Shown: positions 12,209 to 40,225, counted from the first letter of the stretch. The stretch: DNA of 64,000 nt from Bacteroidota bacterium (GCA_006218065.1 VBWE01000014.1:70364-134363), one strand, 5' to 3'. Notes: generated by a model not told the origin, from the letters alone. Numbers and translations are program-made.

Positions 12209-12395
12209 GTCCGGGGACTCACCCCCCGGCCCCCTCTCTCCGACGTTGTAAGCTTTGTTTAAACGAGAGTCGAATTTGCGACAACGTCGCAAAGAGGGGG
12301 AGCCACAACTTAAGTTACTGGAACTAAAACGACCCGGCCTTGCAAAATAGATTAACAAAGCCGGAGAGAGGGGGCCGGGGGGTGAGTCCCCGGAC
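12209..12395. mobile_element. REPIN/MITE-like element, copy 2 (internally deleted)
   Basis: Perfect 34-bp TIR 12209-12242/12362-12395; inner CGACGTTGT/ACAACGTCG stem followed by CAAAGAGGGGG. Confidence 0.9.
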
Positions 12396-12409
12396 CACAA
12401 AAATCTTCC

Positions 12410-12417
12410 TATATTTG
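12410..12417 (+). promoter_or_regulatory. Bacteroidota -7 box TATATTTG for the DUF3098 gene
   Basis: TAnnTTTG immediately upstream of ATG 12424. Confidence 0.6.
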
Positions 12418-12423
12418 CGCTCT

Positions 12424-12705
12424 ATGGCCAAAGAATCAAAAGCCCAGCCTGCCAAAAACGTGAAGGATAACGCACAACCTTCCGGTGGCCTCACGTTTGG
12501 TCGTGAGAATTATATCATCCTGCTCGCGGGAGTTATCGTACTTGCACTCGGTTATATCCTGATGATCGGGGGAGGTTCTGACGACGTCAACAAATTTAAC
12601 GGCGAAGAACTGTTCAGCACGCGGCGGATCACGATTGCACCGATTACGCTGATCATCGGCTTTGTGATCGTACTGGTCGGCATTATGCGCAAACCGAAAA
12701 ACTGA
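12424..12705 (+). CDS. DUF3098-family small membrane protein
   Basis: FGRENYIILLAG...LMIGGGSDD...FSTRRITIAP. Confidence 0.88.
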   Translation: MAKESKAQPAKNVKDNAQPSGGLTFGRENYIILLAGVIVLALGYILMIGGGSDDVNKFNGEELFSTRRITIAPITLIIGFVIVLVGIMRKPKN

Positions 12706-12726
12706 ATTCCAGTTTCAAGATAATGG

Positions 12727-12754
12727 AACGCTCCCGGACGGGGGCGTTTTTTAT
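12727..12754 (+). terminator. Rho-independent terminator after DUF3098
   Basis: AACGCTCC-loop-GGGGCGTT stem followed by a T run. Confidence 0.7.
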
Positions 12755-12897
12755 TGGTGTTTGTTCCTCCCAGGCATTTAACGCCCAATGTCAAATACAC
12801 AATAAACAATTATCAAGGAAGTCCCTCCGATGAACATTGACGTTGATTGTTTTTTATTTCACGGAAGCTGCAGTTATCATAACATCTGTACGCGGTA

Positions 12898-13791
12898 TCA
12901 AAGCGAAATAATTTCTTCCACGTGAAGTCCGTCGAGTTTCAGTACGCCATACACCCGGACGTTCTTTTTCAGGGGAACTGTTTCTCCTTTGCTGTCGCGG
13001 ATAACGACATCTTTTTCAGTCCAGCCTTCTTTCAGATTTTCCATCTGGCTGATGCCTTTCCCGTTGAGTATCTTGACCGTAAATTTTTGTCCTTTTTTAT
13101 TGGTCAGGTCAATGGATATTTCCGCACCGGTAAGCACGTACATGGGCATGCTTAATTTGCCTTCGAGGAAATAGGCTTTGTCGCGCATTTCTTCTTTGTC
13201 ATCGTCGCCAAATGAAAGTTCCGGAAGATTCAATGCGGCATAGTCTGTCCGGGCATCCGGAATACGCTCCATTTTAATTACATCAAGATATACGGCTTTC
13301 CGTTTCGGGTCGCTGAATGATGCCTTCATCCGCCCGGTAATCCTGACGCGCTCGTTGGCGGAGAATGTTTTCCCCTTATCGTCGGTGATGACGAGATCTT
13401 TCAGCCTGTAGTTTTCCGGCAGGGCTTTCATGCGGTTATTCCCTGTTCCTGTATGAATGCGGGTATACATGGACTGGCCGTGGTTCTGGTTATGCCGCCC
13501 GAAAAAGTTCATGCTTTGTCCCCCGCTGCTCGCAGAAGACATCAGCCGCAGCTGCAGGTAACCTTCAACCGATACATTATGTTCCTGCTGCATGGTATCG
13601 GCAAACGCCTGTTCGAAAGTCATAGCAACTGCCGGCAGCTTGTTTATGCTGTCTTTGACCCGCTCCGCTTTTTCGTAAGCCGATTCCCGTTTCGGTTTAT
13701 TATCCTCCGTTTTATTTTTTTTAGAATCATTTCCGCAGGAAATGAAAATAAACCCGGGAAGAATCAATACGGCGAGGTAGAATTTGTTCAT
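12898..13791 (-). CDS. Hypothetical lipoprotein with two internal repeats
   Basis: Lipobox FISC; VEGYL...MKALPENY..KDLVITDDKG...VRITG repeated as LEGKL...MENLKEGW..KDVVIRDSKG...VRVYG. Confidence 0.7.
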   Translation of the reverse strand: MNKFYLAVLILPGFIFISCGNDSKKNKTEDNKPKRESAYEKAERVKDSINKLPAVAMTFEQAFADTMQQEHNVSVEGYLQLRLMSSASSGGQSMNFFGRHNQNHGQSMYTRIHTGTGNNRMKALPENYRLKDLVITDDKGKTFSANERVRITGRMKASFSDPKRKAVYLDVIKMERIPDARTDYAALNLPELSFGDDDKEEMRDKAYFLEGKLSMPMYVLTGAEISIDLTNKKGQKFTVKILNGKGISQMENLKEGWTEKDVVIRDSKGETVPLKKNVRVYGVLKLDGLHVEEIISL

Positions 13792-13942
13792 GTGTAATTT
13801 GTTTCGTGGATAAGCCGGAACAAATATAATAAGATGGAGCAAAGCAGATCAGGCTGCAGGTTCCCGGTGTCTTCGTATCCTGTTCAGTTCCTGCCACAAA
13901 GACACCAGGCATCACGAAGAGAAAAACGAATCGGAATTTATT

Positions 13943-14878
13943 TTACCGGACAACGGTTACGGTACCTGTGCGCTGAAGAGGCTCGGAATCGATCCTGCAA
14001 AACAACTTGTACACGTACACATCCTGCTGCACGTCGCGGTTGCGGTATTTTCCGTCCCACTGCCGTGCCAGGTTGTCCGATGAAAAAATCAGCTGGCCCC
14101 AGCGGTCAAAAATCTGCAGGCTGAATTCCGTTACTTTTTCGCCCAGCGCCGGGAAGAAATCGTTCGTGCCGTCGCCGTTGGGTGTAAATGCATTCGGCAG
14201 GTAAATCGTTCCGCCTGTTATGTTGTTGTTCGGAACCGGCGGTGTGGGCGGAATAACCGGGCAGGCCGTTACGTCCACGAAGTCGATATACATATACGTG
14301 AGGTTAGTTACCGATGCATTCTGAAAACCGCCCAGCGTAAGATATTCTTCACCACCGGCAGCGATGTATGTTCCGCTTACCTGCTGCCACTGCGTGGTAC
14401 TGAACGAGATCGTGCTCTGCACATGCGCGCTCATTCCCGCGGTAAACGGATTCGCCAGCAAAGGCGTTGCAGAAAAATACGCACCGAGCGAAGGTGCGGC
14501 AAGCGGCGTCTGGTCGCACACGGCTGCGTAAAAACTCACGCAGTATGACATGCCGGCCTGCAGCGGCTGGCTGAGCCGCACCTGCACGAATTCGGAATTG
14601 ATCGGCTGGCAGTCGATGCCGATGTATTTTGTTCCGTCGTACGCGGGAATGGTGGACGGCGGAAAAAATACCGCACCATTATAACAGAGGTCCGCCGTAT
14701 TCATCACCGGGTTGCCCGGTCCTGAAAAAATATTCCAGTCGTCGAGGCAATCGATCTGCGGAAGGGGAAAAGAGCAGCCCGAAGTGTCTTCAAAGCTCGG
14801 GTTGGGGACAAGATTCTGCGCCAGGCAGGCAGGTGCGGAGGCGAGCATCAGTATGGCGATTATTTTTCCGGTACCCAT
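13943..14878 (-). CDS. Secreted protein with gliding-motility-associated (T9SS type B) C-terminal domain
   Basis: AQNLVPNPSFE N-terminus; YLPNAFTPNGDGTND...IFDRWGQ...WDG...GTVTVVR. Confidence 0.9.
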   Translation of the reverse strand: MGTGKIIAILMLASAPACLAQNLVPNPSFEDTSGCSFPLPQIDCLDDWNIFSGPGNPVMNTADLCYNGAVFFPPSTIPAYDGTKYIGIDCQPINSEFVQVRLSQPLQAGMSYCVSFYAAVCDQTPLAAPSLGAYFSATPLLANPFTAGMSAHVQSTISFSTTQWQQVSGTYIAAGGEEYLTLGGFQNASVTNLTYMYIDFVDVTACPVIPPTPPVPNNNITGGTIYLPNAFTPNGDGTNDFFPALGEKVTEFSLQIFDRWGQLIFSSDNLARQWDGKYRNRDVQQDVYVYKLFCRIDSEPLQRTGTVTVVR

Positions 14879-15002
14879 GGTAAAACGTTTTAGTCAAAGG
14901 TAGCGGAGCGCTTTTCCGCGCAAATGGATAAACGACTGCTTTTCTTGTACGGGATCCGGCGCGGGTTCTGCGCTGTGCTATCATCGCGGACTTTTGTACC
15001 AT

Positions 15003-16526
15003 TCAGCCCTGTGCGGATTCCGATACGGCTGCGTGGAAACTGGTCTTCCGGATTTTACTTTCGATCCAGGCTTCGGTATTGAAATTCCCGGAAATGAGTT
15101 TTGTGCTTTGCACCGTGCGGATATTTTTCTGTTCCTGCCGGAATTTGCGCAGCGTATCACGAACAGCAGGATCATCCTGTTCGGTTGATTTTTTCAGGAT
15201 GGAAAGAAAAAGACGCAGCGGTTTATTCGCAGGAAATTCCCTGGCAGCCTGCCGTTGCATGTTGAGCGCGGCATAAAACAGCGCATCCGTTTCCCGCTGT
15301 TCGAAATAAACGAGCGCTTCCACCAGGCGCGCGGCGAAGTAAATGTCTTTCCGGAGATTGCTCGTTTCTTTCGTCGTTACGAGGCGCAGGTAACGCAGGC
15401 ACAAACGGTAGTTCCCCGATCCGAAGAAAAGATAAGCCAGGTTGTAGTGCATGATCATGCGGTGCACCGGGCTGATCAACCGGTCCAGCTTGCGCAGTTG
15501 CTGTTCCGTATCGCTGATCACGTGCTGCGCCCGGTCGAAGGAACCGCTGCGGATGTACAACTCCTGCAGGATCGGGTAAACGCTGGTAAATACTTTGAGC
15601 TGCCAGTCGGGCGAATCGGCGAAACCGAAACGCGCCGGCGCACCGTGCAGCTTGCGGATGCAGTCCATCACTTCGCCGGGTTTTTTGAACGCGCTGTAAG
15701 TGATCGCCAGGTTATTCAGCGAGATGAGGTAAAACACCGGGCGGCTCTTCACCTGCCGGGGATGCGCTTCCAGCAGCCCGACCAGTTTCAATTGGTACCG
15801 CAACGCTTTTTTCCGCTCGCCGCGAAGTCCGCAGTACGTGGCGTGCAGCTGGAAAAATCCCAGCCCGCTGCGGAACGAATCGATATTCCGCTCGCTCCGG
15901 TAAAAAGGATCTGCGAGTATTTCCCGGAGCATCTTCAGTTGTTCCCCGCGGCCGCTGTCGCCCTGGCTGCGCATGGTAAAAAAGAGGCGGCCGGAATCCT
16001 GCTTCACCCGCACAATCGATTCGTATTGCCGGAGCGACTTGTTTTCAAGATCGTACACCCGGCGCAGCTGCTGTTCCCGGATTCCTTTCCCGGTTACCTG
16101 GTACAGGTCGACCAGGCGGTTGGTGATTTCCAGGACGAGCAACTGGTTTTCGGCTGCAACGGCTTTTTTCAGCAGCCGTTCGAGCAGGCGCAAACAGGCA
16201 GGATACAAAGCCTTTCGGTAAAGGAGTCCCGCTTCCTGCAAGCCGTTCTGAAGGATCACCTCGTCCTGTTTTGTTTCGAGCTTGCGCAGGCAGCCGATGA
16301 TGAATTCGTACAGCCTGCGTTCGAGTACGTGCGGCTGCGAGCGGCCGGTTTTGCCTTTCACGGTTTTGCGGATTTCTTCCCGGCTGTATGCTTTGCCGGA
16401 AAACAAAAGTTCGAGCAGGTGCTGCAAAGCCGTGCCGTCTTTTTTTTCAGTGCGTGCGCAGGTCCGGATAAATCGTTTTTCGGGTCCGCTGAGTGCGGCA
16501 GCTAAGCGGGGCAGATCTTTTTTCAC
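15003..16526 (-). CDS. Uncharacterised ~500-aa cytoplasmic helical/TPR-like protein
   Basis: No signal peptide; N-terminal DLxxLxxALSxxEKRFI; TPR-like segments (SLNNLA, YNLAYLFFGSGNY). Confidence 0.75.
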   Translation of the reverse strand: MKKDLPRLAAALSGPEKRFIRTCARTEKKDGTALQHLLELLFSGKAYSREEIRKTVKGKTGRSQPHVLERRLYEFIIGCLRKLETKQDEVILQNGLQEAGLLYRKALYPACLRLLERLLKKAVAAENQLLVLEITNRLVDLYQVTGKGIREQQLRRVYDLENKSLRQYESIVRVKQDSGRLFFTMRSQGDSGRGEQLKMLREILADPFYRSERNIDSFRSGLGFFQLHATYCGLRGERKKALRYQLKLVGLLEAHPRQVKSRPVFYLISLNNLAITYSAFKKPGEVMDCIRKLHGAPARFGFADSPDWQLKVFTSVYPILQELYIRSGSFDRAQHVISDTEQQLRKLDRLISPVHRMIMHYNLAYLFFGSGNYRLCLRYLRLVTTKETSNLRKDIYFAARLVEALVYFEQRETDALFYAALNMQRQAAREFPANKPLRLFLSILKKSTEQDDPAVRDTLRKFRQEQKNIRTVQSTKLISGNFNTEAWIESKIRKTSFHAAVSESAQG

Positions 16527-16714
16527 AGGCGATTTTGCGGTCTGGTGGAATTGATCGCTTATTTATTCAGTACAATTATAAGTCAAAAATATATTGTAAA
16601 TAACTAATAATCAAATTATTAATTATTTTAATGATTAATTAATATCTGTACAAAATTTCATTCTTTTATTTTCCTGTGCACGCGCTGCACATTTCATTTG
16701 CAAAAAAATCGCTC

Positions 16715-18268
16715 ATGAAAGATTCTACGACAAGCAGAAGATCACAGGTGCCGGCGGGGAACAAATTGTTCCTGCTGATTTATTTTTTGTTCTTCATGCT
16801 GCTGTTCTGCTGGGCCAAAATGGCCGAAGCGCAATGCAACTGTACTGCGCCGCTGCCTGCGCCGCAAAATCAAACCGTTATAAACATTACCCCGCAGCAG
16901 GGAACTTCGGCCATCCAGTCGGCGATCAACAATGCCGGCGGACCGACTACGATCTACCTCGCGAACGGAACGTATTCGGTTTCGGGCGGACAGATAAACG
17001 TTACCAAACCGGGTATCACGATCCGTTCGCTCAGCGGTAACCGCGACAGCGTGATCATACTCGGGGGCGGCATGCTCGGCGGTTCCGGCTATCACGGCAT
17101 TTCCATCCTGGAAAGCAATGTTACCATCGCGGACCTTACGATCAGGAATATCGATACGCACCCGGTTGATATCAATTTCTGGTACCAGCCGAACAGCGAT
17201 ATCGACAATGTATTGCTGCACAATATCCACGTCATCGACGGCGGGCAGCAACTGGTGAAGATGAGTTTTTCAGGAAACGCGAACGTGAAAAGCAGTTACG
17301 GCATTATCGAATGCAGCCTGATCGAATACACGACTTCGCTGCCGGGAAGCAATACGTACACGAACGGGATCGACCTGCACAATGCGCATCACTGGATCAT
17401 CCGCGACAATGAAATACGCAACATCCGCAGCGGTCCTTCGGCTACAGGTCCCGCGGGTCCGGCCATCCTGTTTTTTCACGGCGGGTCCGATGCGATCGTG
17501 GAAAGAAACCGCGTGATCAACTGCGACGAAGGAATTTTTCTCGGGAATTATTCGAACAACCCGAACGTATCGTTCAGTGGCGGAATCGTCCGGAATAATT
17601 TTGTACGCGGTCATTCCACCAGCCGCTGTGGAATCGGCATCGTACTTTGCCCGGATGCGATCGTGGTGAACAATACGATTTACGCCCCCGGCGGCACAGC
17701 CTGGACAGTGGAGGAATATTCGATCGAGGTTACCGGTGCGCAAACCACGAACCTGCTTATCCAGAATAATCTCCTGGATGAAGATATTATCAACGTGTCG
17801 AATTCCGCGCCGCCGTTTACTACGGTAACGAATATCATCAACGCACCGGCCACGCACTTCGTCAGTACGAGCCTCACCAGCCCGGACCTGCACCTGGTGA
17901 GCAATTCATCCGCCATCAACGCAGGTACGGCGCATGCGCAGCGCACAGACGATTACGATTGCAGCGGAATAAACGGCACGACGGATATCGGCGCGGATGA
18001 ATTCGTAACCATCACGGCTGTTGCGCCGGTTGAAGCGGAGATCATACGCGCATACCCGAATCCTGTTTCCGGTTACCTGCGCGTGGAACTGGACGGTGCG
18101 GATGAAGAAAGAACCTACCAGGTTTTCGATGCGAAAGGCACGCTGGTGCAGTCGGGAATTGTTGCCGGGCTGGTTTTCGTCATCACCGCCAGCGAATTTG
18201 CACCGGGCCTGTATGTGTTGAAATTATCCGGCAACAGGGGAGGAATTTTCAGGTTCGCCAAGTACTGA
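16715..18268 (+). CDS. Right-handed parallel beta-helix protein with T9SS type A CTD
   Basis: IQSAINNA...TIYLANGTY; Asn-rich beta-helix coils; DIGADEF; AYPNPV...GLYVLK. Confidence 0.85.
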   Translation: MKDSTTSRRSQVPAGNKLFLLIYFLFFMLLFCWAKMAEAQCNCTAPLPAPQNQTVINITPQQGTSAIQSAINNAGGPTTIYLANGTYSVSGGQINVTKPGITIRSLSGNRDSVIILGGGMLGGSGYHGISILESNVTIADLTIRNIDTHPVDINFWYQPNSDIDNVLLHNIHVIDGGQQLVKMSFSGNANVKSSYGIIECSLIEYTTSLPGSNTYTNGIDLHNAHHWIIRDNEIRNIRSGPSATGPAGPAILFFHGGSDAIVERNRVINCDEGIFLGNYSNNPNVSFSGGIVRNNFVRGHSTSRCGIGIVLCPDAIVVNNTIYAPGGTAWTVEEYSIEVTGAQTTNLLIQNNLLDEDIINVSNSAPPFTTVTNIINAPATHFVSTSLTSPDLHLVSNSSAINAGTAHAQRTDDYDCSGINGTTDIGADEFVTITAVAPVEAEIIRAYPNPVSGYLRVELDGADEERTYQVFDAKGTLVQSGIVAGLVFVITASEFAPGLYVLKLSGNRGGIFRFAKY

Positions 18269-18379
18269 TTTTTTCCGTGATGCCCGCTTCTCCGCGGGTT
18301 TCTCCCCGAAAGAATTGTCCAGAGAAAACGTCTTGTCATCCCTTACGGATAAGCGTTTATCTTTGGCTTTTCTTTTTCT

Positions 18380-19183
18380 ATGCAAACATCCGATGCTGTC
18401 CTGCTCGCTATTGTGGAAGGACTTACTGAATTTCTGCCGGTAAGTTCCACCGGGCACATGATCATCACTTCGTCCGCGCTCGGCATTGCCTGCGATTCGT
18501 TTACCAAATTGTTTACGGTAGCGGTTCAGCTCGGCGCGATCCTTTCGGTGATCGTTTTTTACTGGAGAAAATTCATCAAACTCACGGACTATCGTTTTTA
18601 CCTGAAGCTGGGACTCGCCGTAGTTCCTGCGCTGATTTTCGGAAAACTGCTCGACGATTTTATCGACGACAAGCTCGGCAATCCTGTTTTTATCGCCTGT
18701 ACGTTACTCGGCGGCGGAATCGTTTTACTTTTCGTGGACAAGTTGTTCAATAAACCGGTCGTGGAAAAAGAAGAGCAGATCAGTTTTCTCAAAGCGCTGT
18801 TCATCGGCTGCTGGCAGGTGCTGGCGGTTTTGCTCCCGGGTTTGAGCCGCAGTGCGGCGACGATCATCGGCGGTATGCAGCAGCGGCTCACGCGCAACCT
18901 CGCCGCAGAGTTTTCATTCTTTCTTGCCGTACCGACCATGCTCGCGGCTACCGGCTACAAACTGTTCAGGTATTATAAAGAAACGGGAGGTTTCACCGGC
19001 GAGGAGATCAAACTGCTGGCCATCGGGAATGTCGTGGCTTTCGTCGTCGCGCTGTTCGCCATCAAGGTTTTCATTGATATGGTGAAAAAGTACGGATTCA
19101 AAATCTGGGGTTATTACCGTATTATCCTTGGAATCGCTGTCCTGGTCATTCATTTCTTTATTCCCATCGCGGTCTGTGCCTGA
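18380..19183 (+). CDS. uppP: Undecaprenyl-diphosphate phosphatase
   Basis: VEGLTEFLPVSSTGH; PGLSRSAATI; AAEFSFFLAVP; TATCTTTG box at 18358-18365. Confidence 0.97.
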   Translation: MQTSDAVLLAIVEGLTEFLPVSSTGHMIITSSALGIACDSFTKLFTVAVQLGAILSVIVFYWRKFIKLTDYRFYLKLGLAVVPALIFGKLLDDFIDDKLGNPVFIACTLLGGGIVLLFVDKLFNKPVVEKEEQISFLKALFIGCWQVLAVLLPGLSRSAATIIGGMQQRLTRNLAAEFSFFLAVPTMLAATGYKLFRYYKETGGFTGEEIKLLAIGNVVAFVVALFAIKVFIDMVKKYGFKIWGYYRIILGIAVLVIHFFIPIAVCA

Positions 19184-19895
19184 AGAAAAACATTTTGATT
19201 TTGCCGCCGGCGAAGTGCTGGCGATACACAAGCCGCTGAACTGGACTTCGTTCGACGTGGTCAACCGGCTGCGCTCGATGATCAAACACAAACTGAAGCT
19301 GAAACTCAAAGTGGGCCACGCCGGCACGCTTGATCCGCTGGCGGAAGGTTTGCTCATTATCTGCACGGGCAAATTCACCAAGCGCATCGACGAATACCAG
19401 GGCCAGGAAAAAGAATACACCGGCATGTTCTGCATTGGTGCAACCACACCCTGTTTCGACCTGGAGAAGCCCGTTGACATGCACTACCCGGTAGATCACA
19501 TCACGGACGAGATGATTCACGCAGCGGCGCAGACTTTTACGGGAAAGATCCGGCAGATCCCGCCGCATTTTTCAGCCATCAAGGTGGAAGGCAAGCGTGC
19601 GTACGATCTTGCGCGGGCGGGCACGGATGCGCAGCTGCAGCCACGCGAAGTGGAAATCACGACATTCGAGATCACGCGCATCGAACGGAAAGGACAGCTC
19701 ATCGAAGCCGACTTCCGCGTGGTTTGCGGAAAGGGAACGTACATCCGTGCGCTGGCGCACGACCTGGGTAGTGCGCTGGGCAGCGGCGCGTACCTCGGGA
19801 AACTCAGCCGCACGCGTATCGGCGACATCCGCCTGGACCAGGCGCTCTCCGTCGACCAGGTCAAAGCGATCATCGAAACCCTGGCTCCCCGTTAA
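19176..19895 (+). CDS. truB: tRNA pseudouridine(55) synthase
   Basis: KPLNWTSFDVV; KVGHAGTLDPLAEG; CGKGTYIRALAHDLG; probable GTG start overlapping the uppP stop. Confidence 0.96.
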   Translation: MPEEKHFDFAAGEVLAIHKPLNWTSFDVVNRLRSMIKHKLKLKLKVGHAGTLDPLAEGLLIICTGKFTKRIDEYQGQEKEYTGMFCIGATTPCFDLEKPVDMHYPVDHITDEMIHAAAQTFTGKIRQIPPHFSAIKVEGKRAYDLARAGTDAQLQPREVEITTFEITRIERKGQLIEADFRVVCGKGTYIRALAHDLGSALGSGAYLGKLSRTRIGDIRLDQALSVDQVKAIIETLAPR

Positions 19896-19958
19896 CACAA
19901 TGTTTACAAGGCTTTCCGGCCACCCCTGATAATTTATTAAAGTTTTTTTGCTTTTTAC

Positions 19959-19990
19959 TTGACAACGGGGGTACGCTAAGGATATATTTG
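19959..19990 (+). promoter_or_regulatory. Bacteroidota promoter for queA (TTG...TATATTTG)
   Basis: TTG at 19959 and TATATTTG at 19983-19990. Confidence 0.6.
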
Positions 19991-20083
19991 CGCGCTATTT
20001 ACCGGGGGGCAGATCATAACATATTATCGTAGAGGCTGATAATCCAGGTTTTTCCCCCGTACACCAAACAAACCGCTGTAATC

Positions 20084-21127
20084 ATGAAATTATCCCAGTT
20101 CAAGTTCCCGCTCACAAAAGATTTTGTATCCGAATACCCGTCGAAAAACCGCGATGAAGCGCGGCTGATGGTTATAAACCGCAAAACAGGGAAGATCGAA
20201 CATAAAGTATTCAAGGACATCATCAATTATTTTGACGACGGTGATGTCATGATTCTCAACGATACGAAAGTTTTTCCGGCACGTCTTTACGGCAACAAAG
20301 AAAAAACCGGTGCGAAAATCGAAGTCTTCCTGCTGCGCGAACTCAACCGCGAAAGCCGCCTGTGGGATGTGCTCGTTGATCCCGCCCGCAAAATCCGTAT
20401 CGGCAACAAACTCTATTTCGGCGACGACGATATGCTGGTTGCCGAAGTCATCGACAATACCACTTCGCGCGGCCGCACACTTCGTTTCCTGTTCGACGGG
20501 CCGTACGAAGATTTCAAAAAAACGATTTACCAGCTCGGCAATACGCCGCTTCCGAATCTTCGTACGGCCCAGGCCGATGATGCGGAACGTTACCAGACGG
20601 TTTATGCCAAAGTGGAAGGCGCTGTAGCCGCTCCCACAGCCGGTATGCATTTCAGCCGCGAGTTATTGAAACGGCTCGAACTGAAAGGCGTGAACTTCGC
20701 CGAACTTACGCTTCATGTCGGGCTCGGAAGTTTCCGCCCGGTAGAAGTGGAAGACCTCACCAAGCACAAGATGGAAAGCGAACAGGCCGAAATCCCGCAA
20801 GGCTGCGCCGATATCGTCAACGCAGGAAAGCGCAAGAAGAAACGCATCTGCGCAGTAGGTACTACGGTTGTCCGTTCCATCGAAACTTCCGTATCTACGG
20901 ATGGTTACCTGAAACCGTTCAGCGGCTGGACGAATAAATTTATTTTCCCGCCTTACGATTTCCAGATCGCCAACTGCATGATTACGAATTTTCATGCACC
21001 CGAATCCACCCTGCTCATGATGGTATGTGCATTCGGCGGATACGACCTGGTGATGAAAGCCTATCGCGAAGCCATGAAAGAAAAGTATCGCTTCCTGAGC
21101 TACGGTGATGCTATGCTGATCATCTAA
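20084..21127 (+). CDS. queA: S-adenosylmethionine:tRNA ribosyltransferase-isomerase
   Basis: [10 protein letters not shown]; RYQTVYA; [11 protein letters not shown]; LHVGLGSF; [10 protein letters not shown]; SYGDAMLI. Confidence 0.97.
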
Positions 21128-21137
21128 TTACACGCAA

Positions 21138-22985: not shown

Positions 22986-23045
22986 AGTCCTGCAAAATTA
23001 GCAGGATCAGCATCCAAAAATACAATACCGGCGGATGAAATAGAA

Positions 23046-23526: not shown

Positions 23527-23678
23527 GTCGGTCAGCTTTCAGCAAATGTAGAACCGGCAAAACGCATGAGTCAATACGCCGGAATAGGTATTCTTTGGCG
23601 CAAACGATACCCGGTTTTGGGTACGATATTCATAATCCGCTGCTTTGCACAGATTTGCAATCCGTACCTTTGCACCTG

Positions 23679-29578: not shown

Positions 29579-29696
29579 TACTGCAAAATTTGCAAAAAAA
29601 ACCGATAAGCAGCAAGAGCAAAGTCATTTTGCTATCCGAAGCGGTTCACAACAATCGAGCATCCGAATTGTTAACTTTGAGCCACTACTCCCATTT

Positions 29697-30671: not shown

Positions 30672-30672
30672 A

Positions 30673-32115: not shown

Positions 32116-32131
32116 CCCGAAACCTCTGAGA

Positions 32132-32980
32132 ATGCGGATATGCAAGGATAAAAAAACCGGTAAGCGTTGTTTACATTACATAAGCGTAGTATGGACGTTG
32201 TTGTTCTTTTTCACCGGCTCACAGGCGTACGCACAGCAGCCCACAAAATATTACTGGGAAAACGGCAAACTGAAAAGCGAAGGTATGCTGGACGCTGCGG
32301 GGAAACTCGACGGGTTCTGGGCTTTTTATTACGAAAGCGGTGTTAAAAAATCGGAAGGGTTTTATAATCACGGCAAAGCCGAGAAAGCCTGGTTTTTCTG
32401 GGATATGAACGGGAAACTGGCCAGCCGCGGGTTTTACAAAAATGACCAGCTCGACAGCGCCTGGATATTTTTTCAGCCCGACGGGCATGTATGGAAAATG
32501 TGTTTCTACAAAAACAACCTGCTCGACGGTGCCCACGTGGAATGGTGGAACGATACGCTGATGAAAGAAGCCGGCACGTACAGGAAAGGCCTGAAGCACG
32601 GCACCTGGACAACCTGGTACCCCGCCTGCCAGGTAAAAAGTCAGCAGGTTTTTGTCGACGGCAAAGTGAACGGCGATTACCTGCTCTGGCATGAGAATGG
32701 TGTGCTGCAAACTTCCGGCGAAGTGATGAACGACAAATCCGAAGGCGAATGGAAATTCTGGGACCGGCAGGGAAAACTGCTCACCGTGGGAAATTATCAT
32801 CTCGGGCAGTGGCACGGACTGTGGACGGATTACAAGGACAACGGGAAGCGCCTGGCCGCGGGTCATTTCAACATGAACAAAAAAACGGGTCGCTGGCGTT
32901 ACTGGAACGAGGAAGGAAAAATCAGGAAACTGGAAATCTATAAAGACGAAAAACTGTTCAAAGAAATCAGCTATGAATAA
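32132..32980 (+). CDS. MORN-variant repeat (YwqK-like) protein
   Basis: Repeated GxWxxYxENGxxKSEGxYxNG units; start uncertain. Confidence 0.8.
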   Translation: MRICKDKKTGKRCLHYISVVWTLLFFFTGSQAYAQQPTKYYWENGKLKSEGMLDAAGKLDGFWAFYYESGVKKSEGFYNHGKAEKAWFFWDMNGKLASRGFYKNDQLDSAWIFFQPDGHVWKMCFYKNNLLDGAHVEWWNDTLMKEAGTYRKGLKHGTWTTWYPACQVKSQQVFVDGKVNGDYLLWHENGVLQTSGEVMNDKSEGEWKFWDRQGKLLTVGNYHLGQWHGLWTDYKDNGKRLAAGHFNMNKKTGRWRYWNEEGKIRKLEIYKDEKLFKEISYE

Positions 32981-33428
32981 ACGCATCATACTTCCGGCCC
33001 TTGCCGGTGTTTTTTTTCTCGCAGCCTGCAGCAACGAACCTGTCGCTGACAAAAAAAAAGATACTGCCGATAGTGTGCTGAGAATCACGACCACCAACAG
33101 CGACGCACCGAAACCCGGCGCCATTATGTTCGAAGGCGATACGGTGACGCACTATCCGAACGGCGTGATCCAGGTAAAGGGCTATATGGGCGGCGGGATG
33201 CGGCAGGGACAATGGTTTGCCTTTTTTGAAAACGGCGAAGTACAGAGCGAATGCCAGTATAAAAACAACCTCAAACACGGAAAGTCGGTTGTTTACCGCG
33301 AAGGCGGTAAAAAGTACTGGGAAGGATATTATAATATGGATGCGAAAGTCGGGAAATGGAAATTCTGGGATGATGCCGGGAAAATGACGGAAAAAGATTA
33401 TGGAGGAACACTGCCCACCGGGAAGTAG
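32973..33428 (+). CDS. MORN-variant repeat lipoprotein
   Basis: Lipobox LAAC; YPNG..KG...GQW..FFENG repeats. Confidence 0.8.
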   Translation: MNKRIILPALAGVFFLAACSNEPVADKKKDTADSVLRITTTNSDAPKPGAIMFEGDTVTHYPNGVIQVKGYMGGGMRQGQWFAFFENGEVQSECQYKNNLKHGKSVVYREGGKKYWEGYYNMDAKVGKWKFWDDAGKMTEKDYGGTLPTGK

Positions 33429-33459
33429 TTACTCCTTGCCGGTCAAATGGCAAATGCAA

Positions 33460-33536
33460 AATTTCAAATGTAAAATGCCAACCTGTTTGATTGGTTCACT
33501 TTAGTGTTTGGAGTTTGGCATTTTACATTTGAAATT
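33460..33536. repeat. Heptamer-periodic inverted repeat
   Basis: Perfect 22-bp IR AATTTCAAATGTAAAATGCCAA 33460-33481/33515-33536. Confidence 0.8.
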
Positions 33537-33651
33537 ATTTTATGCGAACCAGGATTACCAGCTAAATTCCCCAACCCACGCAAACAAATGCCCCGGCCTG
33601 TTTGTTTTAAAAGCGGATCCCTTCTCTTCCTGTTCTTTTAAAACATCCGTT

Positions 33652-34167
33652 ATGATCTCCTCCGGTCAGAACCTTTATTCGCCGCTTCAACGGGAAGTCC
33701 GTTACCGGCACATCATCAACCGCTTGGGTATGATGGTCGCTTTTTTAGCCTTTATTATTCTTGCGCTGATCGCGATGCTCGTTTTCCGGCGGGCGGGTGC
33801 GAATGAAATGACCCTTTCCGAAAATAAGAACAGCGGCGGAAATGTAAGCGATATGATGCCACACGCCATGAACTATAAACCTGAAGAAGGCAAACCAAAC
33901 GGAGAACAGCTCTTCGAACAGAAATGCGCTTCCTGTCACCAGGTCAGTACTGAAAACATAACCGGTCCCGGCCTGCTGGGCGTGAGCGAACGTATCCCCG
34001 CCGGCGACTGGAAATACAAATGGATTACCAATCCCGCCGCGATGCGCGACCAGGAAGATCCGTATGCTTTAAAAATAATTGCAGAAAGTAACGGGAACAT
34101 GATGACGCCGCAAAACCTGTCGGATGAAGAAATCGACGAAATTTTCCGCTACATCGATGCGCATTGA
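33652..34167 (+). CDS. Membrane-anchored monoheme cytochrome c
   Basis: TM helix; GEQLF..KCASCH; GPGL; distal Met (MMTP); LSDEEIDEIFRYI. Confidence 0.9.
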   Translation: MISSGQNLYSPLQREVRYRHIINRLGMMVAFLAFIILALIAMLVFRRAGANEMTLSENKNSGGNVSDMMPHAMNYKPEEGKPNGEQLFEQKCASCHQVSTENITGPGLLGVSERIPAGDWKYKWITNPAAMRDQEDPYALKIIAESNGNMMTPQNLSDEEIDEIFRYIDAH

Positions 34168-34278
34168 TCTTTTGTTAATAGTGTAACTGCCTGATCGCTA
34201 ACTGTTTTACATTCATTAACACCGCTTGCCGAAACCTCTCCTGCCACCGGCTCGTTTACCCGGCAAGAACTACAACCC

Positions 34279-34431
34279 ATGTACGCTACAGTTGATCCTC
34301 TGAGTAAACGCGTTCTGCGTTACCCGATTCAAAAAACAAAGCAGTTCATCGCTTTTATCCGGAGCTGCATTTTTCCTCCACATCAGTTGATTCCTGTTCC
34401 CGTTACCACCGGGAAAGGCAGCCGGCGATAG
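34279..34431 (+). CDS. Putative 50-aa small protein
   Basis: MYATVDPLSKRVLRYPIQKTKQFIAFIRSCIFPPHQLIPVPVTTGKGSRR; preceded by ECF-like GAAAC...CGTT (34231-34256). Confidence 0.4.
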   Translation: MYATVDPLSKRVLRYPIQKTKQFIAFIRSCIFPPHQLIPVPVTTGKGSRR

Positions 34432-34513
34432 CGGTCGCATGCTGAATTGAATTCACTTGTGTATGCCACGCATGCGCAGGATCATTCCTTCTTTTCGTCA
34501 ACCCCAAAAATCC

Positions 34514-35590
34514 ATGCTCATGGAACCAAATCCATCTGACCTGATGAACAGGCCGGTGAACCGGTCATTGCTTCACGCATTCGGAAAGCATGCCCGCTGG
34601 AGTGAAAAAACGGCGCAGGACGCGTTTCACGAAAGCGGTATTTATGCCGGCCGCGCTCAATGGCTTACCTGGGCCACCCGTTTCTTCGCCGGAACGGGCG
34701 TCGCCTTCCTGCTTGCGGGTATTCTTTTCTTCTTCGCCTGGAACTGGGCAGATATGTCGCGCATGTTGAAATTCGGCATTATCGGCGGCGGCATTGTCGT
34801 GATCACCATTGTTTCGATGATCCTGCGGAAAAAACACGAATTCGCATTCCAGCTCGGACTTACGATCGTGAGTGCGCTGGTGGGTGTGCTCTTCGCCGTG
34901 CACGGGCAGGAATATCAAACCGGTGCGAACAGTTTCGAATTGTTCCGCAACTGGGCCGTAGCGATTGCGCTGCTGGTGGTCATCAGCAATTTTCCGCCGC
35001 TCTGGATGCTTTACCTGGTACTGCTGAATATCGTGGTGATTACCTGGAACATCCAGTTCGAGGGCTGGCAGGAAGGCATGCTTTTTACGGAACTGTTTAT
35101 CATGAACACCTTCGGCCTGATTGCCTGGGAACTGTGCCGCGGCTTCGGCGTTCCGTTTGCACAGCGGCGCTGGTTTCTGCGGGTGGCGGGATTTGCAGCA
35201 TTTGTTTTCCTGTCGTGGAAAGTGTTTATCACGGGCCATCATTTCAGCGGCATGTCGCGCGATGCGCTGGTTTGCTGCGTCGTCATCATTCCCGCTTTTG
35301 TTTTCGGGGCAGGGTACCTCGGGTTTTTCAGGAAGGATATTTTTTTCCTGGCGCTGATCTGTTTCTGCACGGTGATGATCGCGTCGAATTTTCTCGACCT
35401 GCTTTTGCCGCCGGTGAAGGAAAGCCGGGGAGAAGGTCTTGAAGCGATGTCGGCCTCCGTTAAATCGACGCTCGACCGGATGTACCTTATTATGATGATG
35501 CGCGGTCTGTTCATCATCGGCCTCACCAGCCTGATCGGTGTTCAATTGGTTAAGCTCAGTAAAAAATGGCGCAATCATGAACAATCCTGA
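34514..35590 (+). CDS. DUF2157 membrane protein
   Basis: GILFFFAWNW; GQEYQTGANSFELF..W. Confidence 0.88.
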   Translation: MLMEPNPSDLMNRPVNRSLLHAFGKHARWSEKTAQDAFHESGIYAGRAQWLTWATRFFAGTGVAFLLAGILFFFAWNWADMSRMLKFGIIGGGIVVITIVSMILRKKHEFAFQLGLTIVSALVGVLFAVHGQEYQTGANSFELFRNWAVAIALLVVISNFPPLWMLYLVLLNIVVITWNIQFEGWQEGMLFTELFIMNTFGLIAWELCRGFGVPFAQRRWFLRVAGFAAFVFLSWKVFITGHHFSGMSRDALVCCVVIIPAFVFGAGYLGFFRKDIFFLALICFCTVMIASNFLDLLLPPVKESRGEGLEAMSASVKSTLDRMYLIMMMRGLFIIGLTSLIGVQLVKLSKKWRNHEQS

Positions 35591-36689
35591 TGTCAAGCGA
35601 ATGACCTTCGGCCAGTTGCTCGAACGTCTTCAGCAAAAAGATCCGGCCGGACTTTCTTACGACCCGGCCCTGGTGGAAAACGAAATCGCGAAAAACGAAA
35701 AGCGTGAATACCCGGTGGCTGTGCGTGTGCTCATCGTACTCGGCGCCTGGATCGGTGCTGCGATGCTTGCGGCATTCCTCACCTTTTTCGTATTCGGAAA
35801 AGATGAACCGACCCTGGTGGTAGCCGGCGTGATCTTCATCCTCGCGGGATTGCTGCTGCCGCGCCTGAACGTGTTGCCCGTAGCGATAGAACCGTTTGCG
35901 CTGGCGATATCCGTGATCGGCATCTCGCTGCTCATGGGTGGCATGGATTACGATATCGACGATAATTATGCGCCGCATAACCTCATCATCGCACTCATCG
36001 AAATCGCGATTGCTGTTTTCACGGTGAGCCGCGTGCAACGTACGGTAGGTGTATTCGGTTTTTTCGGATTCCTGGGTATTTACTTTTACCAGAACCTGGA
36101 ATCGCCGCATGCCGTGATGGCCCTGGCCGGTGTATGTATGTTGCTGTTCACCTGGATGCAGGTCAGCGAAACGCGGATGCTTGCCAAAGGAAAAAAACTG
36201 ATCCGTTATTACCAGCCTGTACTGAGCGGACTGATGCTGTCGATCCCGGTACTTTGTTTATACACGCTGATCAAAGAACCGGAAGGACATGAATCGTGGC
36301 ACCCGGACAGTACGGGCTTCACGGGCTGGTGGCCTGTGGCGCTGCCGGCGATTGCGGCATTGCTCTGGACGCTTCGTGTGATCCTGGTGAAGACCTGCGG
36401 TTTTCAGAAAGCACGCGTGAACGCATTACTGCTTTTTGCGCTCCTCTGTCTCGCGCCCATGGTGAAAGCGCCCGGCATCGTGGCTTCGATCCTGCTGATC
36501 GCCTGCGGATTTTATTCGGGACAACGTTTCACGCTGGGCATCGGCATCCTGTCACTCATTTATTACTGCATCACTTTTTATTACATGATGGAAACCACCC
36601 TGCTCGTGAAATCCGTCCTGATGATGGTATCGGGTGCGCTGCTTGTGGCGGCGGCTCTGGTGTTTAACTATTTAAACAAACGCTCATGA
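35577..36689 (+). CDS. DUF4401 membrane protein
   Basis: GAWIGA; C-terminal FYYMMETTLLVKSVLMMVSG; operon context. Confidence 0.85.
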   Translation: MNNPDVKRMTFGQLLERLQQKDPAGLSYDPALVENEIAKNEKREYPVAVRVLIVLGAWIGAAMLAAFLTFFVFGKDEPTLVVAGVIFILAGLLLPRLNVLPVAIEPFALAISVIGISLLMGGMDYDIDDNYAPHNLIIALIEIAIAVFTVSRVQRTVGVFGFFGFLGIYFYQNLESPHAVMALAGVCMLLFTWMQVSETRMLAKGKKLIRYYQPVLSGLMLSIPVLCLYTLIKEPEGHESWHPDSTGFTGWWPVALPAIAALLWTLRVILVKTCGFQKARVNALLLFALLCLAPMVKAPGIVASILLIACGFYSGQRFTLGIGILSLIYYCITFYYMMETTLLVKSVLMMVSGALLVAAALVFNYLNKRS

Positions 36690-37261
36690 TTATCCGCAAA
36701 ATCCTTTTCGCTCTGTGCGTGACCGGCACGCTTGTTTTTTTCAGTATGGACATGAAAAAAAAAGAGGACGTCATTCAAAACGGCCGGCTTGTTTATTTCG
36801 ACATGCGGCAGCGTGACCCGCGTTCGCTGATGCAGGGCGATTACATGCACCTGAATTACGGTATGGAGAATAATATGAGGAGAGACAACGTGACGCTTTC
36901 GCCGGAAGGGTATGTGGTGATCTGGCTCGACAGTAACCGCGTGGCCCGCTTCATCCGCGTACAGGACCAGCCCGAACCGCTGCACGATACCGAACTCGTG
37001 GTGAAATACCGGACGCGGAAGAATTTTTTCGGAGCCGATCCTGTGCTTGGTCCTGCTTCCTTTTTCTTCGAGGAAGAAAAAGCGGAATGTTTTTCCACCG
37101 CCCGGTATATCGAAATGCGCGTGGATGAAAACGGCACCGCTATCCTGACCGGCCTGGCCGACTGGGATTTCTGCAGGCTGCACGAACAGGATTCGGCGAG
37201 CTACCATCACTGGCTCGAAAATCATCCGCCGCCCCCTCCGCCCCCTCCGGGAATCGATTAA
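36686..37261 (+). CDS. GDYXXLXY-domain protein
   Basis: DPRSLMQGDYMHLNY; SFFFEE. Confidence 0.92.
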   Translation: MIIRKILFALCVTGTLVFFSMDMKKKEDVIQNGRLVYFDMRQRDPRSLMQGDYMHLNYGMENNMRRDNVTLSPEGYVVIWLDSNRVARFIRVQDQPEPLHDTELVVKYRTRKNFFGADPVLGPASFFFEEEKAECFSTARYIEMRVDENGTAILTGLADWDFCRLHEQDSASYHHWLENHPPPPPPPPGID

Positions 37262-37369
37262 CATAGAAATCTCCGGGATTGATTCTTCAAAAATTATTTG
37301 AGCACAATCTCCCGGCATTCCCGGACGGATGAAACAAAGCCCGCCGGCTTTTCTTATTTTTAGACCTTC

Positions 37370-39373
37370 ATGGCAAAGAAGACGGAAAAAAAGAAAAGCA
37401 AAGCCGCATCACCCGGGCTGAGCGGATACCTGAAAAAGCATGTTTTTATCGTCGCACTCGTTGTGCTGGTCGGCATCGTTTTCGGGAACACGCTTTCGAA
37501 CGGGTACGCGCTCGATGACGATTACTATACGAACGGCGGCACGTCGCAAACCGCGCAAAATATCCGCAAAGGTTTTTCGGGCATTCCGAAACTGCTGACC
37601 ACGCTGACCTTCCAGGGAAGAGAAGGAGAAGGTTACGCATACCGCCCGGTGGTGGCGATTTCATTTGCCATCGAACATGCGCTTTTCGGTGAAAGTGCGA
37701 AAGCCAGTCACTTCATCAGCCTGCTTTTATATGCGCTCACGGTCGTGGTGCTTTTCCTTCTACTGAAGCGCTGGTTCCCGGCGCAGGGCGAATGGTTCGT
37801 GTTTTTCGTCTGCCTGCTTTTTCTCGTTCACCCGCTGCATACCGAAGTGGTAAACAATATCAAAAGCCGGGATGAACTGCTGGCTATGCTGGGCGCGCTG
37901 GGTTGTTTCTATTTCGCGTGGCGGCATATCGAAACGGGTCGCTGGTACTACCTGCTGCTTTACCCGCTTTGTTTCCTGCTCGGTATGTTTTCCAAACGCA
38001 CGATCATTCCGTATTACGTATTGTTCCCGATGGCGCTCTGGTTTTTCAGCAAACAGAACTGGAAAAAAATCGCGCTGTACATGGTTCCGCTGATTATCGT
38101 CGCAGCCATTTCAGCCCTTGCACAGCAACAGCTTCTGCCGCAGCAGCAAAGAGAATACCTTTTGCTGGAAAATCCGTTTCCCACGGGACACTATGGTATT
38201 GCTGCAAAAACAGCGACCTCGGCCTACATTCTCGGGCGTTATCTCTGGCTGCATATTATTCCGCACCCGCTCGTGTATTATTACGGGTTCCGTCACGTGC
38301 CGGTCGTGGACTGGTCGAATATCATCGCGATTGCGGGATTGCTCGTGCATGTTTTTCTCGGCGTGGTGGCTTTGCTCGGGTTACGGAAACGCAGCCTGCT
38401 TTCGTTCGCCATCCTGTTTTATCTTGTCAACATGGCTGCCTACTCGAACCTGCTGCAGCCCGCTCCGGGTATGATGGCGGAACGTTTTACCTATTCGGCC
38501 ACCATCGGTTTTTGCATCGCCATAACCTGGCTTGTTTTTAAACTGCTGAAAACAGAACCGCAAAATTTTGCCTGGGGAGAAACCAATACGGTGCGGATCG
38601 TGCTGCTGGGTATTGCAGGTCTTTTTGCCATGCGCAGCTTTGTGCGAAACGGCGACTGGGAAAGTAAAATAACCCTGTACGGCAACGACATGGAATACCT
38701 CGAAGAATCGGCCAAAGCGAATATGATGCTCGGCCAGCTTTATTTATACGACGGTATCCAGAAGAACAACCAGCAGGAACTGGAGCTTGCGCGGAAAAAT
38801 TTTCAGAAAGCCGTGGAGATTACGCCCGGTTATTCCATCGCGTGGAACGATCTCGGCACCGCTTCGTTTTTCCTCGGAGAATACAGCGCCGCCGCGAAGG
38901 AATTCGGAAAAAGTCTTGCGCTGGATCCGAAAAACGTGAACACGGTGTACAGTATGGGCCTTTCGCTTTACAAGATGCAGCAGTTGGATTCTGCGCTTCC
39001 GTATTTTCAGCGGACGCTCCGGCTCGACTCCATGCAGATGCGCGCCTGGGAATACGTAGCCCGGATCACATCCGAAAAAGGAAATCCCGACGAAGCGCTC
39101 CGCATACTCGAACGCGCCGCGAAAACCGATCCGAAAAACGAACTGCCGTATGAAGTCATGGCCAGTATCCACATGAAGGATAAAAAAGACACCGTGATGG
39201 CCATCGCGCTGTATGAAAAATCATTGCAGATGAACCCGCGAAACCTGCAGCGCATCGGTGGACTGGCCGAGTATTTCAAGCAAAAAGGCAATACGGAAAA
39301 ACTGCAATACTACAGCGATATGTATATGCGCATCAAACAGGAGATGGAAACTGCTGCGCAGCAAAAAAAATGA
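37370..39373 (+). CDS. TMTC-like membrane glycosyltransferase with C-terminal TPRs
   Basis: YALDD; YRP; HPLHTEVVNNIKSRDE; AERFTY; RNGDW; several TPRs. Confidence 0.85.
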   Translation: MAKKTEKKKSKAASPGLSGYLKKHVFIVALVVLVGIVFGNTLSNGYALDDDYYTNGGTSQTAQNIRKGFSGIPKLLTTLTFQGREGEGYAYRPVVAISFAIEHALFGESAKASHFISLLLYALTVVVLFLLLKRWFPAQGEWFVFFVCLLFLVHPLHTEVVNNIKSRDELLAMLGALGCFYFAWRHIETGRWYYLLLYPLCFLLGMFSKRTIIPYYVLFPMALWFFSKQNWKKIALYMVPLIIVAAISALAQQQLLPQQQREYLLLENPFPTGHYGIAAKTATSAYILGRYLWLHIIPHPLVYYYGFRHVPVVDWSNIIAIAGLLVHVFLGVVALLGLRKRSLLSFAILFYLVNMAAYSNLLQPAPGMMAERFTYSATIGFCIAITWLVFKLLKTEPQNFAWGETNTVRIVLLGIAGLFAMRSFVRNGDWESKITLYGNDMEYLEESAKANMMLGQLYLYDGIQKNNQQELELARKNFQKAVEITPGYSIAWNDLGTASFFLGEYSAAAKEFGKSLALDPKNVNTVYSMGLSLYKMQQLDSALPYFQRTLRLDSMQMRAWEYVARITSEKGNPDEALRILERAAKTDPKNELPYEVMASIHMKDKKDTVMAIALYEKSLQMNPRNLQRIGGLAEYFKQKGNTEKLQYYSDMYMRIKQEMETAAQQKK

Positions 39374-39482
39374 TTTGAAAATGAACCGATTTGAAAATTT
39401 GAAAATGCGCACATATCAACACACGCAGTCATCTTCTCTCCCGATAGCTATCGGGACAAATTGATTCATTTTCAAATCGGAT
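39372..39482. repeat. ATTTGAAAATG-family MITE-like element containing palindrome TCCCGATAGCTATCGGGA
   Basis: Homologous to the reverse complement of 44968-45064 and 51281-51377; palindrome at 39439-39456. Confidence 0.85.
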
Positions 39483-39507
39483 CAAATTCTTAGTCCGTAC
39501 TATAATT

Positions 39508-39978
39508 ATGGGTATCGAAATCGAGCGCAAATTTTTAGTGAAAGACGAGAGCTGGAAACAGGCTTTGTCCGAACCCGGAAAACCGTACCGGCAGGGTTAT
39601 ATGCTCAGCGACAATCGCCGCACCGTTCGCGTGCGCACCGCGGGGGATAAAGGATTCATCACCATCAAAGGAAAAGGAAAGGGATTGCGCCGCCCGGAAT
39701 TTGAATACGAGATTCCGCTGGAAGATGCGAAAGAATTGCTGGCGCTTTGCGATGAAACGATCATCGTAAAAAAGCGGCACCTCGTGCAGCATGAAGCGCA
39801 TACGTGGGAAGTGGACGTTTTCGAAGGCGACAATGCCGGGCTGATCGTTGCGGAAATCGAATTGTCGCACGAAGATGAAACATTCGCCGTTCCCGATTGG
39901 GCCGGTGAAGAAGTGACTTTTGACGGCCGGTATTCCAACGCCAGTTTGTCGCGGCGGCCGTGGAGTAAGTGGAATTGA
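39508..39978 (+). CDS. CYTH-domain protein
   Basis: EIERKFLV; RVR; EFEYEIP; WEVDVF; VAEIEL; YSN. Confidence 0.93.
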   Translation: MGIEIERKFLVKDESWKQALSEPGKPYRQGYMLSDNRRTVRVRTAGDKGFITIKGKGKGLRRPEFEYEIPLEDAKELLALCDETIIVKKRHLVQHEAHTWEVDVFEGDNAGLIVAEIELSHEDETFAVPDWAGEEVTFDGRYSNASLSRRPWSKWN

Positions 39979-40225
39979 CTCACCCCCCGGCCCCCTCTCT
40001 CCGGCTTTGTTAATCCGCTTTACAAGGCTGGGTCGTTTTAATACAAAGCCGCAAAGAGGGGGTGTCGTAAAACTGTAAAACCTGCGTCTTTGACGCAGGT
40101 TTTACAGTAGTTCCTTTTACTATAAGTTGTGGCTCCCCCTCTTTGTGACGTTGTCGCAAACCGACTTTCGTTTAAACAAAACACACAACGTCGGAGAGAG
40201 GGGGCCGGGGGGTGAGTCCCCGGAC
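39977..40225. mobile_element. REPIN/MITE-like element, copy 3 (full length, inverted relative to copy 2)
   Basis: 27-bp TIR 39977-40003/40192-40218; each arm has an inner stem plus CAAAGAGGGGG; central ACTGTAAAACCTGCGTC-TTT-GACGCAGGTTTTACAGT stem. Confidence 0.9.

Follow-up and report, generated by a model that had tools for sequence, protein, structure and literature searches.

Hin-, Gin- and Fim-type segments and the invertons of Bacteroides are site-specific invertible segments, Bacteroidota are known for invertible DNA, and Rickettsia palindromic elements (RPE) insert in frame in protein-coding genes. Inversions between dispersed repeats (insertion sequences, MITEs (miniature inverted-repeat transposable elements), repetitive extragenic palindromic (REP) sequences, rrn operons) have inverted copies at the breakpoints, a reversed interior and conserved flanks, as does the locus described here. 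Such repeats break short-read assemblies and drive rearrangements in Bacteroidota, according to the available part of one report (PMC5771137). We analyzed a stretch of 64,000 nucleotides from a Bacteroidota bacterium (GCA_006218065.1, VBWE01000014.1:70364-134363; hereafter the window, with positions counted from its first letter), in which a block of 27.6 kb extending from the DUF3098 gene to a CYTH gene was, we hold with good confidence, inverted once in the lineage; each breakpoint would lie within one of two oppositely oriented copies of a palindromic repeat specific to that lineage (copies 2 and 3; Table 1).

The window contains three copies of this repeat (copies 1, 2 and 3), of which copies 2 and 3 are 190-250 bp in size. 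A first-pass annotation of this DNA had described copy 2 as the reverse complement of copy 3 over both arms and the internal sequence, and this was borne out: arms 12209-12272 and 40162-40225 are 94% complementary over 64 nt, arms 12325-12388 and 39977-40040 are 92% complementary over 64 nt, and BLAST aligned copy 2 with the reverse strand of copy 3 at 90.8% identity over 119 nt and 92.2% over 64 nt. Because each copy is itself palindromic, orientation was judged from the internal sequence, according to which the two are indeed inverted. Terminal inverted repeats of about 40 nt are present in each copy (for copy 2, 12209-12249 and 12355-12395, 41 nt, 95%), a central block of about 67 nt, made up of a hairpin and the second half of an inner inverted repeat, is found in copies 1 and 3 and missing from copy 2, and the end of copy 3 that faces CYTH is about 7 nt shorter. 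Each junction copy folds as one long palindrome, at -65 kcal/mol (z -10.7) for copy 2 and -85 kcal/mol (z -12.9) for copy 3. The earlier placement of ftsX and DUF3098 right beside the repeats also holds, with the ftsX stop codon (40233-40235) measured at 7 nt from the end of copy 3 at 40225 and the DUF3098 start (12424) at 28 nt past the end of copy 2 at 12395.

Gene identities were obtained from a Pfam scan of the window's 61 open reading frames (ORFs). With the ftsX and DUF3098 proteins as queries against 30 related genomes, we found both in 25. In 24 of these, DUF3098 is directly downstream of ftsX on the same strand, with about 15 to 335 nt between the two. G016 is the sole exception: there the genes are on two different contigs, each no more than about 320 nt from a contig end, which is compatible with the same adjacency across an assembly gap. 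In the window, DUF3098 is 27.5 kb from ftsX and on the opposite strand, and the spacer left over at the two junctions (7 + 28 nt) fits the short spacers of the relatives. Synteny with relatives had been named beforehand as a check on the proposed inversion, and its outcome agrees with the proposal. Among 29 metagenome loci found with ftsX, some of them near-duplicates of one another, 20 show ftsX followed by DUF3098, in most cases then by uppP and truB; the remaining nine stop too soon or give no DUF3098 match, and none of the 29 shows CYTH or the inverted block. No contig of the same species was found in metagenomes, the best ftsX match being 76% identical. In one congener-level metagenome contig with ftsX at that identity, an unrelated insert of 1.3 kb separates ftsX from DUF3098 (L016:4858-6184), and the gene after DUF3098 is of type IX secretion system (T9SS) type, not uppP; the ftsX-DUF3098 spacer may be a favoured insertion site.

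The wider gene order was compared in five family relatives from two genera (G003, G005, G008, G013 and G018), in which dnaG lies on the ftsX contig and strand, 11-27 kb downstream, and whose dnaG-to-ftsX stretches were scanned with the window proteins. All five carry dnaG(-) ... MORN2(-) [MORN1(-)] polyprenyl synthase(-) orf28865(+) rlmN(-) amidohydrolase(+) ispD(-) queA(-) truB(-) uppP(-) [DUF3098(-)] ftsX(-), with leuS(+) next after ftsX(-) in four; DUF3098 passed a stricter local threshold in only two of these stretches, but the protein search placed it there in all five. The window carries dnaG(-) orf163(-) [copy 2] DUF3098(+) ... uppP(+) truB(+) queA(+) ispD(+) amidohydrolase(-) rlmN(+) ... 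orf28865(-) polyprenyl synthase(+) MORN1(+) MORN2(+) ... CYTH(+) [copy 3] ftsX(-) leuS(+) DUF3108(+) TDO(+). The flanks of the window have retained their ancestral spacing and relative orientation, dnaG and ftsX being both minus-strand genes separated by 28.7 kb, and between the repeats the order and strand are reversed relative to the five family relatives. The congener G001 is un-inverted as well, with leuS(-) ftsX(+) DUF3098(+) uppP(+) truB queA ... CYTH(+). The idea of a repeat-mediated inversion is thus upheld by all five family relatives and the congener, and the relatives lacking the repeats are un-inverted rather than arranged as in the window.

A conserved ftsX-DUF3098-uppP-truB order had also been claimed in the first-pass annotation. 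This is right for the relatives, but DUF3098 and uppP are not contiguous in the window, where 5.7 kb of T9SS-cargo-type ORFs lie between them (12898-18268; four ORFs, two of them with T9SS sorting domains, CHU_C and Por_Secre_tail). These ORFs are missing at the same place in the congener and in the five family relatives, where DUF3098 adjoins uppP. At the other end of the interior, the CYTH frame is conserved with the congener as far as the last tryptophan. Between a cytochrome c gene and CYTH, positions 34457-39373 hold a DUF2157-DUF4401-GDYXXLXY block with a TPR/PMT_2 glycosyltransferase-like gene, for which the syntenic stretch of the congener gave no match.

From the orders above we infer the following course of events. 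The order before the flip would have been dnaG(-) orf163(-) [repeat] CYTH(-) ... uppP(-) DUF3098(-) [repeat] ftsX(-) leuS(+), one copy having inserted between ftsX and DUF3098, in a spacer of roughly 35 nt, and the second at the stop codon of CYTH. An exchange between the copies would then have reversed the interior, left a complete hybrid copy at each junction and parted DUF3098-uppP-truB from ftsX. It could have proceeded by RecA recombination on the 39-41-nt identical ends, as the longest exact word common to copy 2 and the reverse-complemented copy 3 is 41 nt, which is enough for homologous exchange; the minimum identical length for RecA is roughly 25-30 nt. Long palindromes are break-prone, and break repair at these cruciform-prone sequences is an equal candidate, because the modest likeness of the copies would make RecA exchange rare and palindromes break.

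By a rough estimate, the chance of finding copies of this family, which occupies about 30 loci in 5.26 Mb, at both breakpoints is well below 1e-4. Two independent inverted hits exactly at the breakpoints are accordingly improbable, and we consider it very unlikely that the inversion took another route, with the repeats inserted at the breakpoints later or through the element's own transposition (inversion-insertion). The copies are diverged, as such a history would allow, and the spacer of L016 with its unrelated insert is possibly a favoured landing site, but the flanks show no inverted target-site duplication of the replicative intramolecular transposition type. A programmed reversible switch, in which a site-specific recombinase would act on the repeats and both orientations would coexist in the population, is hardly credible even though the segment is bounded by inverted repeats, since a Pfam scan of the window's 61 ORFs revealed no recombinase, be it of an integrase, an invertase or a resolvase family. 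The segment consists of 27.6 kb of housekeeping genes and is neither a promoter nor a shufflon, its bounding copies have diverged by 8-9% and are set apart by an indel, although frequent exchange would keep them uniform, they belong to a dispersed family of about 30 loci and not to a dedicated site pair, and the alternative junction is not in the assembly.

Several observations weigh against a single inversion between copies 2 and 3. The copies are just 91-92% alike, with at most 41 identical bases, which makes them a poor RecA substrate. No ortholog of orf163 was found in the relatives (best match 27% identity, elsewhere in the congener), so that synteny alone places the left breakpoint between dnaG and the CYTH/MORN genes. 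The left flank of the congener differs, with dnaG flipped and the DUF4154-MFS block displaced; the congener underwent rearrangements of its own next to the block, and the genus-level ancestral state was for this reason taken from the family-level outgroups. The GC3 skew per gene spoke neither for nor against the inversion (plus-strand values of +0.07 on the left, -0.003 in the interior and -0.01 on the right) and, because the coding strand dominates, provides no usable replication signal and no dating. Nor can the flanks tell which copy stood where before the flip, since no target-site duplication was seen. Finally, in four of the five public runs found (groundwater metagenomes, 31-mer contigs, compared over 11700-12900) all contigs stop inside the repeat and none bridges it, the depth of the best run is just about 7.5, and in the genome itself (G000, a groundwater metagenome bin of 81 contigs with 162 ends) at least 16 contig ends have the repeat core no more than 130 nt away, so the family does trouble the assembler. 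The 31-mer contigs at copy 2 have no joints, only loose ends from other family copies, and favour neither orientation. As to the congener's left flank, about 15 kb lie between the flipped dnaG and the DUF4154-ARPP1-MFS genes, and the window's repeats are not present in that stretch (G001:C21:30001-90000). In G011, G015 and G016, dnaG is 86-197 kb from ftsX, and the dnaG-ftsX neighbourhood is not immutable.

The contig breaks, the low depth and the fragmented bin all speak for an assembly artefact, in which the true order would be the ancestral one and the flanks would have been joined to the wrong interior ends at the inverted copies. A pair of inverted repeats is the exact graph structure that leaves the orientation of an interior ambiguous, and published genomes of Bacteroidota have contained false inversions at repeats according to the available part of the report cited above (PMC5771137), for which reason we did not set the probability of misassembly any lower. 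We nonetheless judge it unlikely. Outside their ends the copies disagree every few bases, and the block of about 67 nt is a further difference between them. At 43 of the 162 contig ends we found an exact terminal word of exactly 59 nt that recurs at another place in the assembly, a sign that the de Bruijn word was about 59 nt long; the longest exact word recurring anywhere in the assembly is 50 nt for copy 2 and 49 nt for copy 3, and these as well as the 41-nt word shared by the two copies fall below that length, so that the path through each junction consists of unique words. The four 200-nt flanks are unique in the assembly, the window contains no N, no alternative junction contig was found in the assembly, and two concordant wrong joins would be required. 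More uniform copies of the family did break the assembly, as the core near at least 16 contig ends indicates. The indirect evidence favours a real and fixed inversion, which this probably is.

To describe the repeat family, we searched the genome (5.26 Mb) with the terminal 27-mer allowing up to 4 mismatches, yielding 59 matches at about 30 loci, including 16 complete copies whose two 27-nt core matches span 163-244 nt. A search of the 30 relatives with copy 2 gave no match in the congener G001 and only matches of 24-30 nt to the terminal core in G010 and G024, and the repeat was not found in any of six syntenic stretches from relatives; as neither the congener nor these stretches contain it, the family expanded in the inversion-bearing lineage. 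The exact terminal-repeat 27-mer had no match in 185,579 species genomes. The family resembles MITEs in its terminal inverted repeats, small size, lack of an ORF and many copies, but no direct repeat that could be a target-site duplication flanks the 16 complete copies, several of which have a common AGTAAGTA / TACTTACT motif outside their ends. No autonomous transposase element with the same ends was found in a search made for Y1_Tnp (PF01797) alone. A Y1 partner of the REP-associated tyrosine transposase (RAYT) kind, as in REP or bacterial interspersed mosaic elements (BIME), was considered and dismissed, the two weak Y1 matches in the genome both lacking the repeat at their flanks. Rfam reported no family at gathering thresholds anywhere in the window, including the leuS insert described below, and the matches of copy 2 to miRNA families were at chance level and were discarded.

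A shorter part of the repeat is far more widespread. The 21-nt core of the terminal inverted repeat (12218-12238) has exact matches at more than 124 loci in other species, whose hosts include Chloroflexota, Planctomycetota, Hymenobacter, Armatimonadota, Acidobacteriota and others; among the 91 occurrences listed, most continue with a variable loop and GGAGAGGGGG, forming a hairpin. A DUF559 gene lies beside the 21-mer in just 3 of 80 loci (L045-L124), so that most hairpin modules are solitary. A second intergenic repeat family is present in the window at 39373-39438, 44970-45064 and 51283-51377, rich in ATTTGAAAAT/TTGAAAATTGA and 86-89% alike, and similar words also occur in the CYTH-dnaG spacer of the congener (L002:10990-11560).

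The sole gene that we found flanked by units of the inversion repeat family is a free-standing DUF559 endonuclease gene (G000:C63:123-503), the units being 92-93% identical to the arms of copy 2. Two further DUF559 domains of the genome are encoded in frame inside aminoacyl-tRNA synthetase genes. The window's leuS product has 1196 aa, with a DUF559 (Vsr-like endonuclease) domain at residues 619-725 within an in-frame insert of about 158 codons (residues 583-740, DNA 43061-43533), bounded by 31-nt imperfect inverted repeats that form a hairpin of the pyrimidine-run type CCCCTCTCC/GGAGAGGGG and are related to the inversion repeat; 8 relatives lack this insert at the corresponding position, and 4 loci (two near-duplicate pairs) carry it. 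The other is in ileS (G000:C78:74621-75028), with similar G/C hairpins on both sides. Both leuS and ileS are single-copy in the assembly, which is 99.98% complete.

Across the phylum, DUF559 was detected in 59 of 121 sampled genomes, with at least 24 matches in open frames of 600 aa or more (hand count). It was found 9 times in G024 and not found in G001, G003, G018 or G010. We scanned 14 DUF559 frames of 422-1109 aa with Pfam as far as the loci reach (L171-L206) and identified a host protein in 12 (LeuRS and HsdR three times each, MetH twice, and IleRS, acetyl-CoA synthetase, HsdM and Lhr once each), the remaining two having DUF559 alone and no family, respectively. The window's LeuRS is a fourth LeuRS case, and the LeuRS inserts occupy two different sites. 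At 23 of 28 DUF559 loci the best inverted repeat across the domain exceeded the maximum of 10 shuffles, and 21 of these 23 have, by eye, a hairpin of the CCCTCTCC-loop-GGAGAGGG type. DUF559 was grouped with Vsr and a group I intron homing endonuclease in a PD-(D/E)XK survey, in the available parts of the sources (PMC3424549; PMC3239194). Judging by titles and abstracts, we found no published description of hairpin-bounded or in-frame DUF559 cassettes.

A tentative extension of these findings, which we hold to be possible but doubtful, is that the inversion repeats are non-autonomous derivatives of selfish cassettes distributed across phyla, and that the inversion is collateral damage from breaks at two hairpin modules. 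Such a cassette would consist of a DUF559 gene bounded by CCCCTCTCC-loop-GGAGAGGGG hairpin modules and would fit in frame inside essential single-copy genes because the modules are read through as Pro/Gly-rich linkers; breaks would have been made or provoked at two modules, instead of a plain RecA exchange.

The separation of DUF3098 from ftsX appears to have been tolerated because DUF3098 has its own predicted promoter box (TATATTTG) directly upstream, and since the inversion split the two genes, DUF3098 would need no co-transcription with ftsX. The box resembles TAnnTTTG, the Bacteroidota -7 promoter consensus. That DUF3098 has a box of its own had been suggested before, and the relatives agree: by eye, 14 of 26 related loci have a TAnnTT(T/C)G box at a distance of 8-15 nt upstream of the ATG of DUF3098, so a promoter of its own with a very short leader seems ancestral.

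Table 1. Coordinates of the repeat copies, the reversed segment and the genes at its ends and flanks.
Feature	Position	Strand	Remarks
Repeat copy 1	445-705	+	Same family as copies 2 and 3; no part in the inversion
dnaG	9570-11567	-	Conserved left-flank anchor; same strand as ftsX, as in five family relatives
163-aa small ORF (orf163)	11681-12172	-	Left flank; earlier called a lipoprotein; no Pfam family
Repeat copy 2	12209-12395	+	Probable left breakpoint; 187-nt palindromic MITE-like element; without central block
Inverted segment	12396-39976		About 27.6 kb between the repeats, DUF3098 to CYTH; 27 ORFs by manual pick
TATATTTG	12410-12417	+	Predicted promoter box of the Bacteroidota -7 type; lies 6 nt upstream of the ATG of DUF3098
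DUF3098 gene	12424-12705	+	Pfam E 4e-26; directly downstream of ftsX in relatives
uppP	18380-19183	+	Inside the inverted block
truB	19128-19895	+	Inside the inverted block
queA	20084-21127	+	Inside the inverted block
CYTH gene	39508-39978	+	Last gene of the inverted block; stop TGA overlaps the first bases of copy 3
Repeat copy 3	39977-40225	-	Probable right breakpoint; opposite orientation to copy 2; contains the hairpin block of about 67 nt at its centre
ftsX	40233-41108	-	Right flank, ancestral orientation
leuS	41314-44904	+	Right flank; divergent from ftsX as in relatives

Elsewhere in the window, positions 714-3179 contain a single 821-aa frame with a Mur ligase and both alanine racemase domains, a fusion of the murF-alr type. 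A low-GC stretch at 54000-58000 (0.375-0.40 against about 0.51 elsewhere) carries two AAA-ATPase genes, one of them encoding 776 aa with TPR repeats (54175-57702), and may be an acquired island. The gene at 60613-63183 (minus strand) encodes an 856-aa T9SS-sorted protein and has three internal repeats of about 480-490 nt that are 65-87% alike.

The inversion is in itself routine repeat-driven genome plasticity, but it splits ftsX-DUF3098-uppP-truB, an order conserved in nearly all relatives examined, and calls for caution in the synteny-based annotation of metagenome bins. The repeat carries more weight than the flip, as its hairpin module ties a lineage-specific burst of palindromes to in-frame DUF559 cassettes. 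If these form a family of mobile elements, it would combine in-frame insertion without splicing, as in RPE, with a homing-type nuclease.

Among the known systems, the locus differs from inversions at dispersed repeats in its short repeats of 190-250 bp, which are strongly palindromic and just 91-92% alike, and in that no transposase partner (Y1_Tnp search) and no target-site duplication were found. Like an inverton, the segment is bounded by inverted repeats; unlike invertons, it has no recombinase gene in the window, extends over 27.6 kb with 27 ORFs, is bounded by members of a dispersed repeat family and gave no evidence of two orientations. The repeat is like MITEs in being small, non-coding, multi-copy, intergenic and lineage-specific, a comparison that includes BrickBuilt of P. 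gingivalis as presented in the available part of its description (PMC5771137), and it shares with them terminal inverted repeats and nested hairpins. It departs from them in that neither a target-site duplication nor a transposase with the same ends was found, the gene flanked by its units being a DUF559 endonuclease.

The Vsr-like (EDxHD) homing endonuclease I-Bth0305I belongs to the same PD-(D/E)XK clade as DUF559, in the available parts of the two sources (PMC3239194; PMC3424549). DUF559 is found here, like homing endonucleases, in discrete and patchily distributed inserts; I-Bth0305I resides in a group I intron, whereas the DUF559 insert is in frame and bounded by hairpin modules, not by splicing elements. 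As with RPE, palindromic repeat DNA is tolerated as an in-frame coding insert, but RPE are devoid of genes, whereas the inserts in leuS and ileS code for an endonuclease domain with hairpins on both sides.

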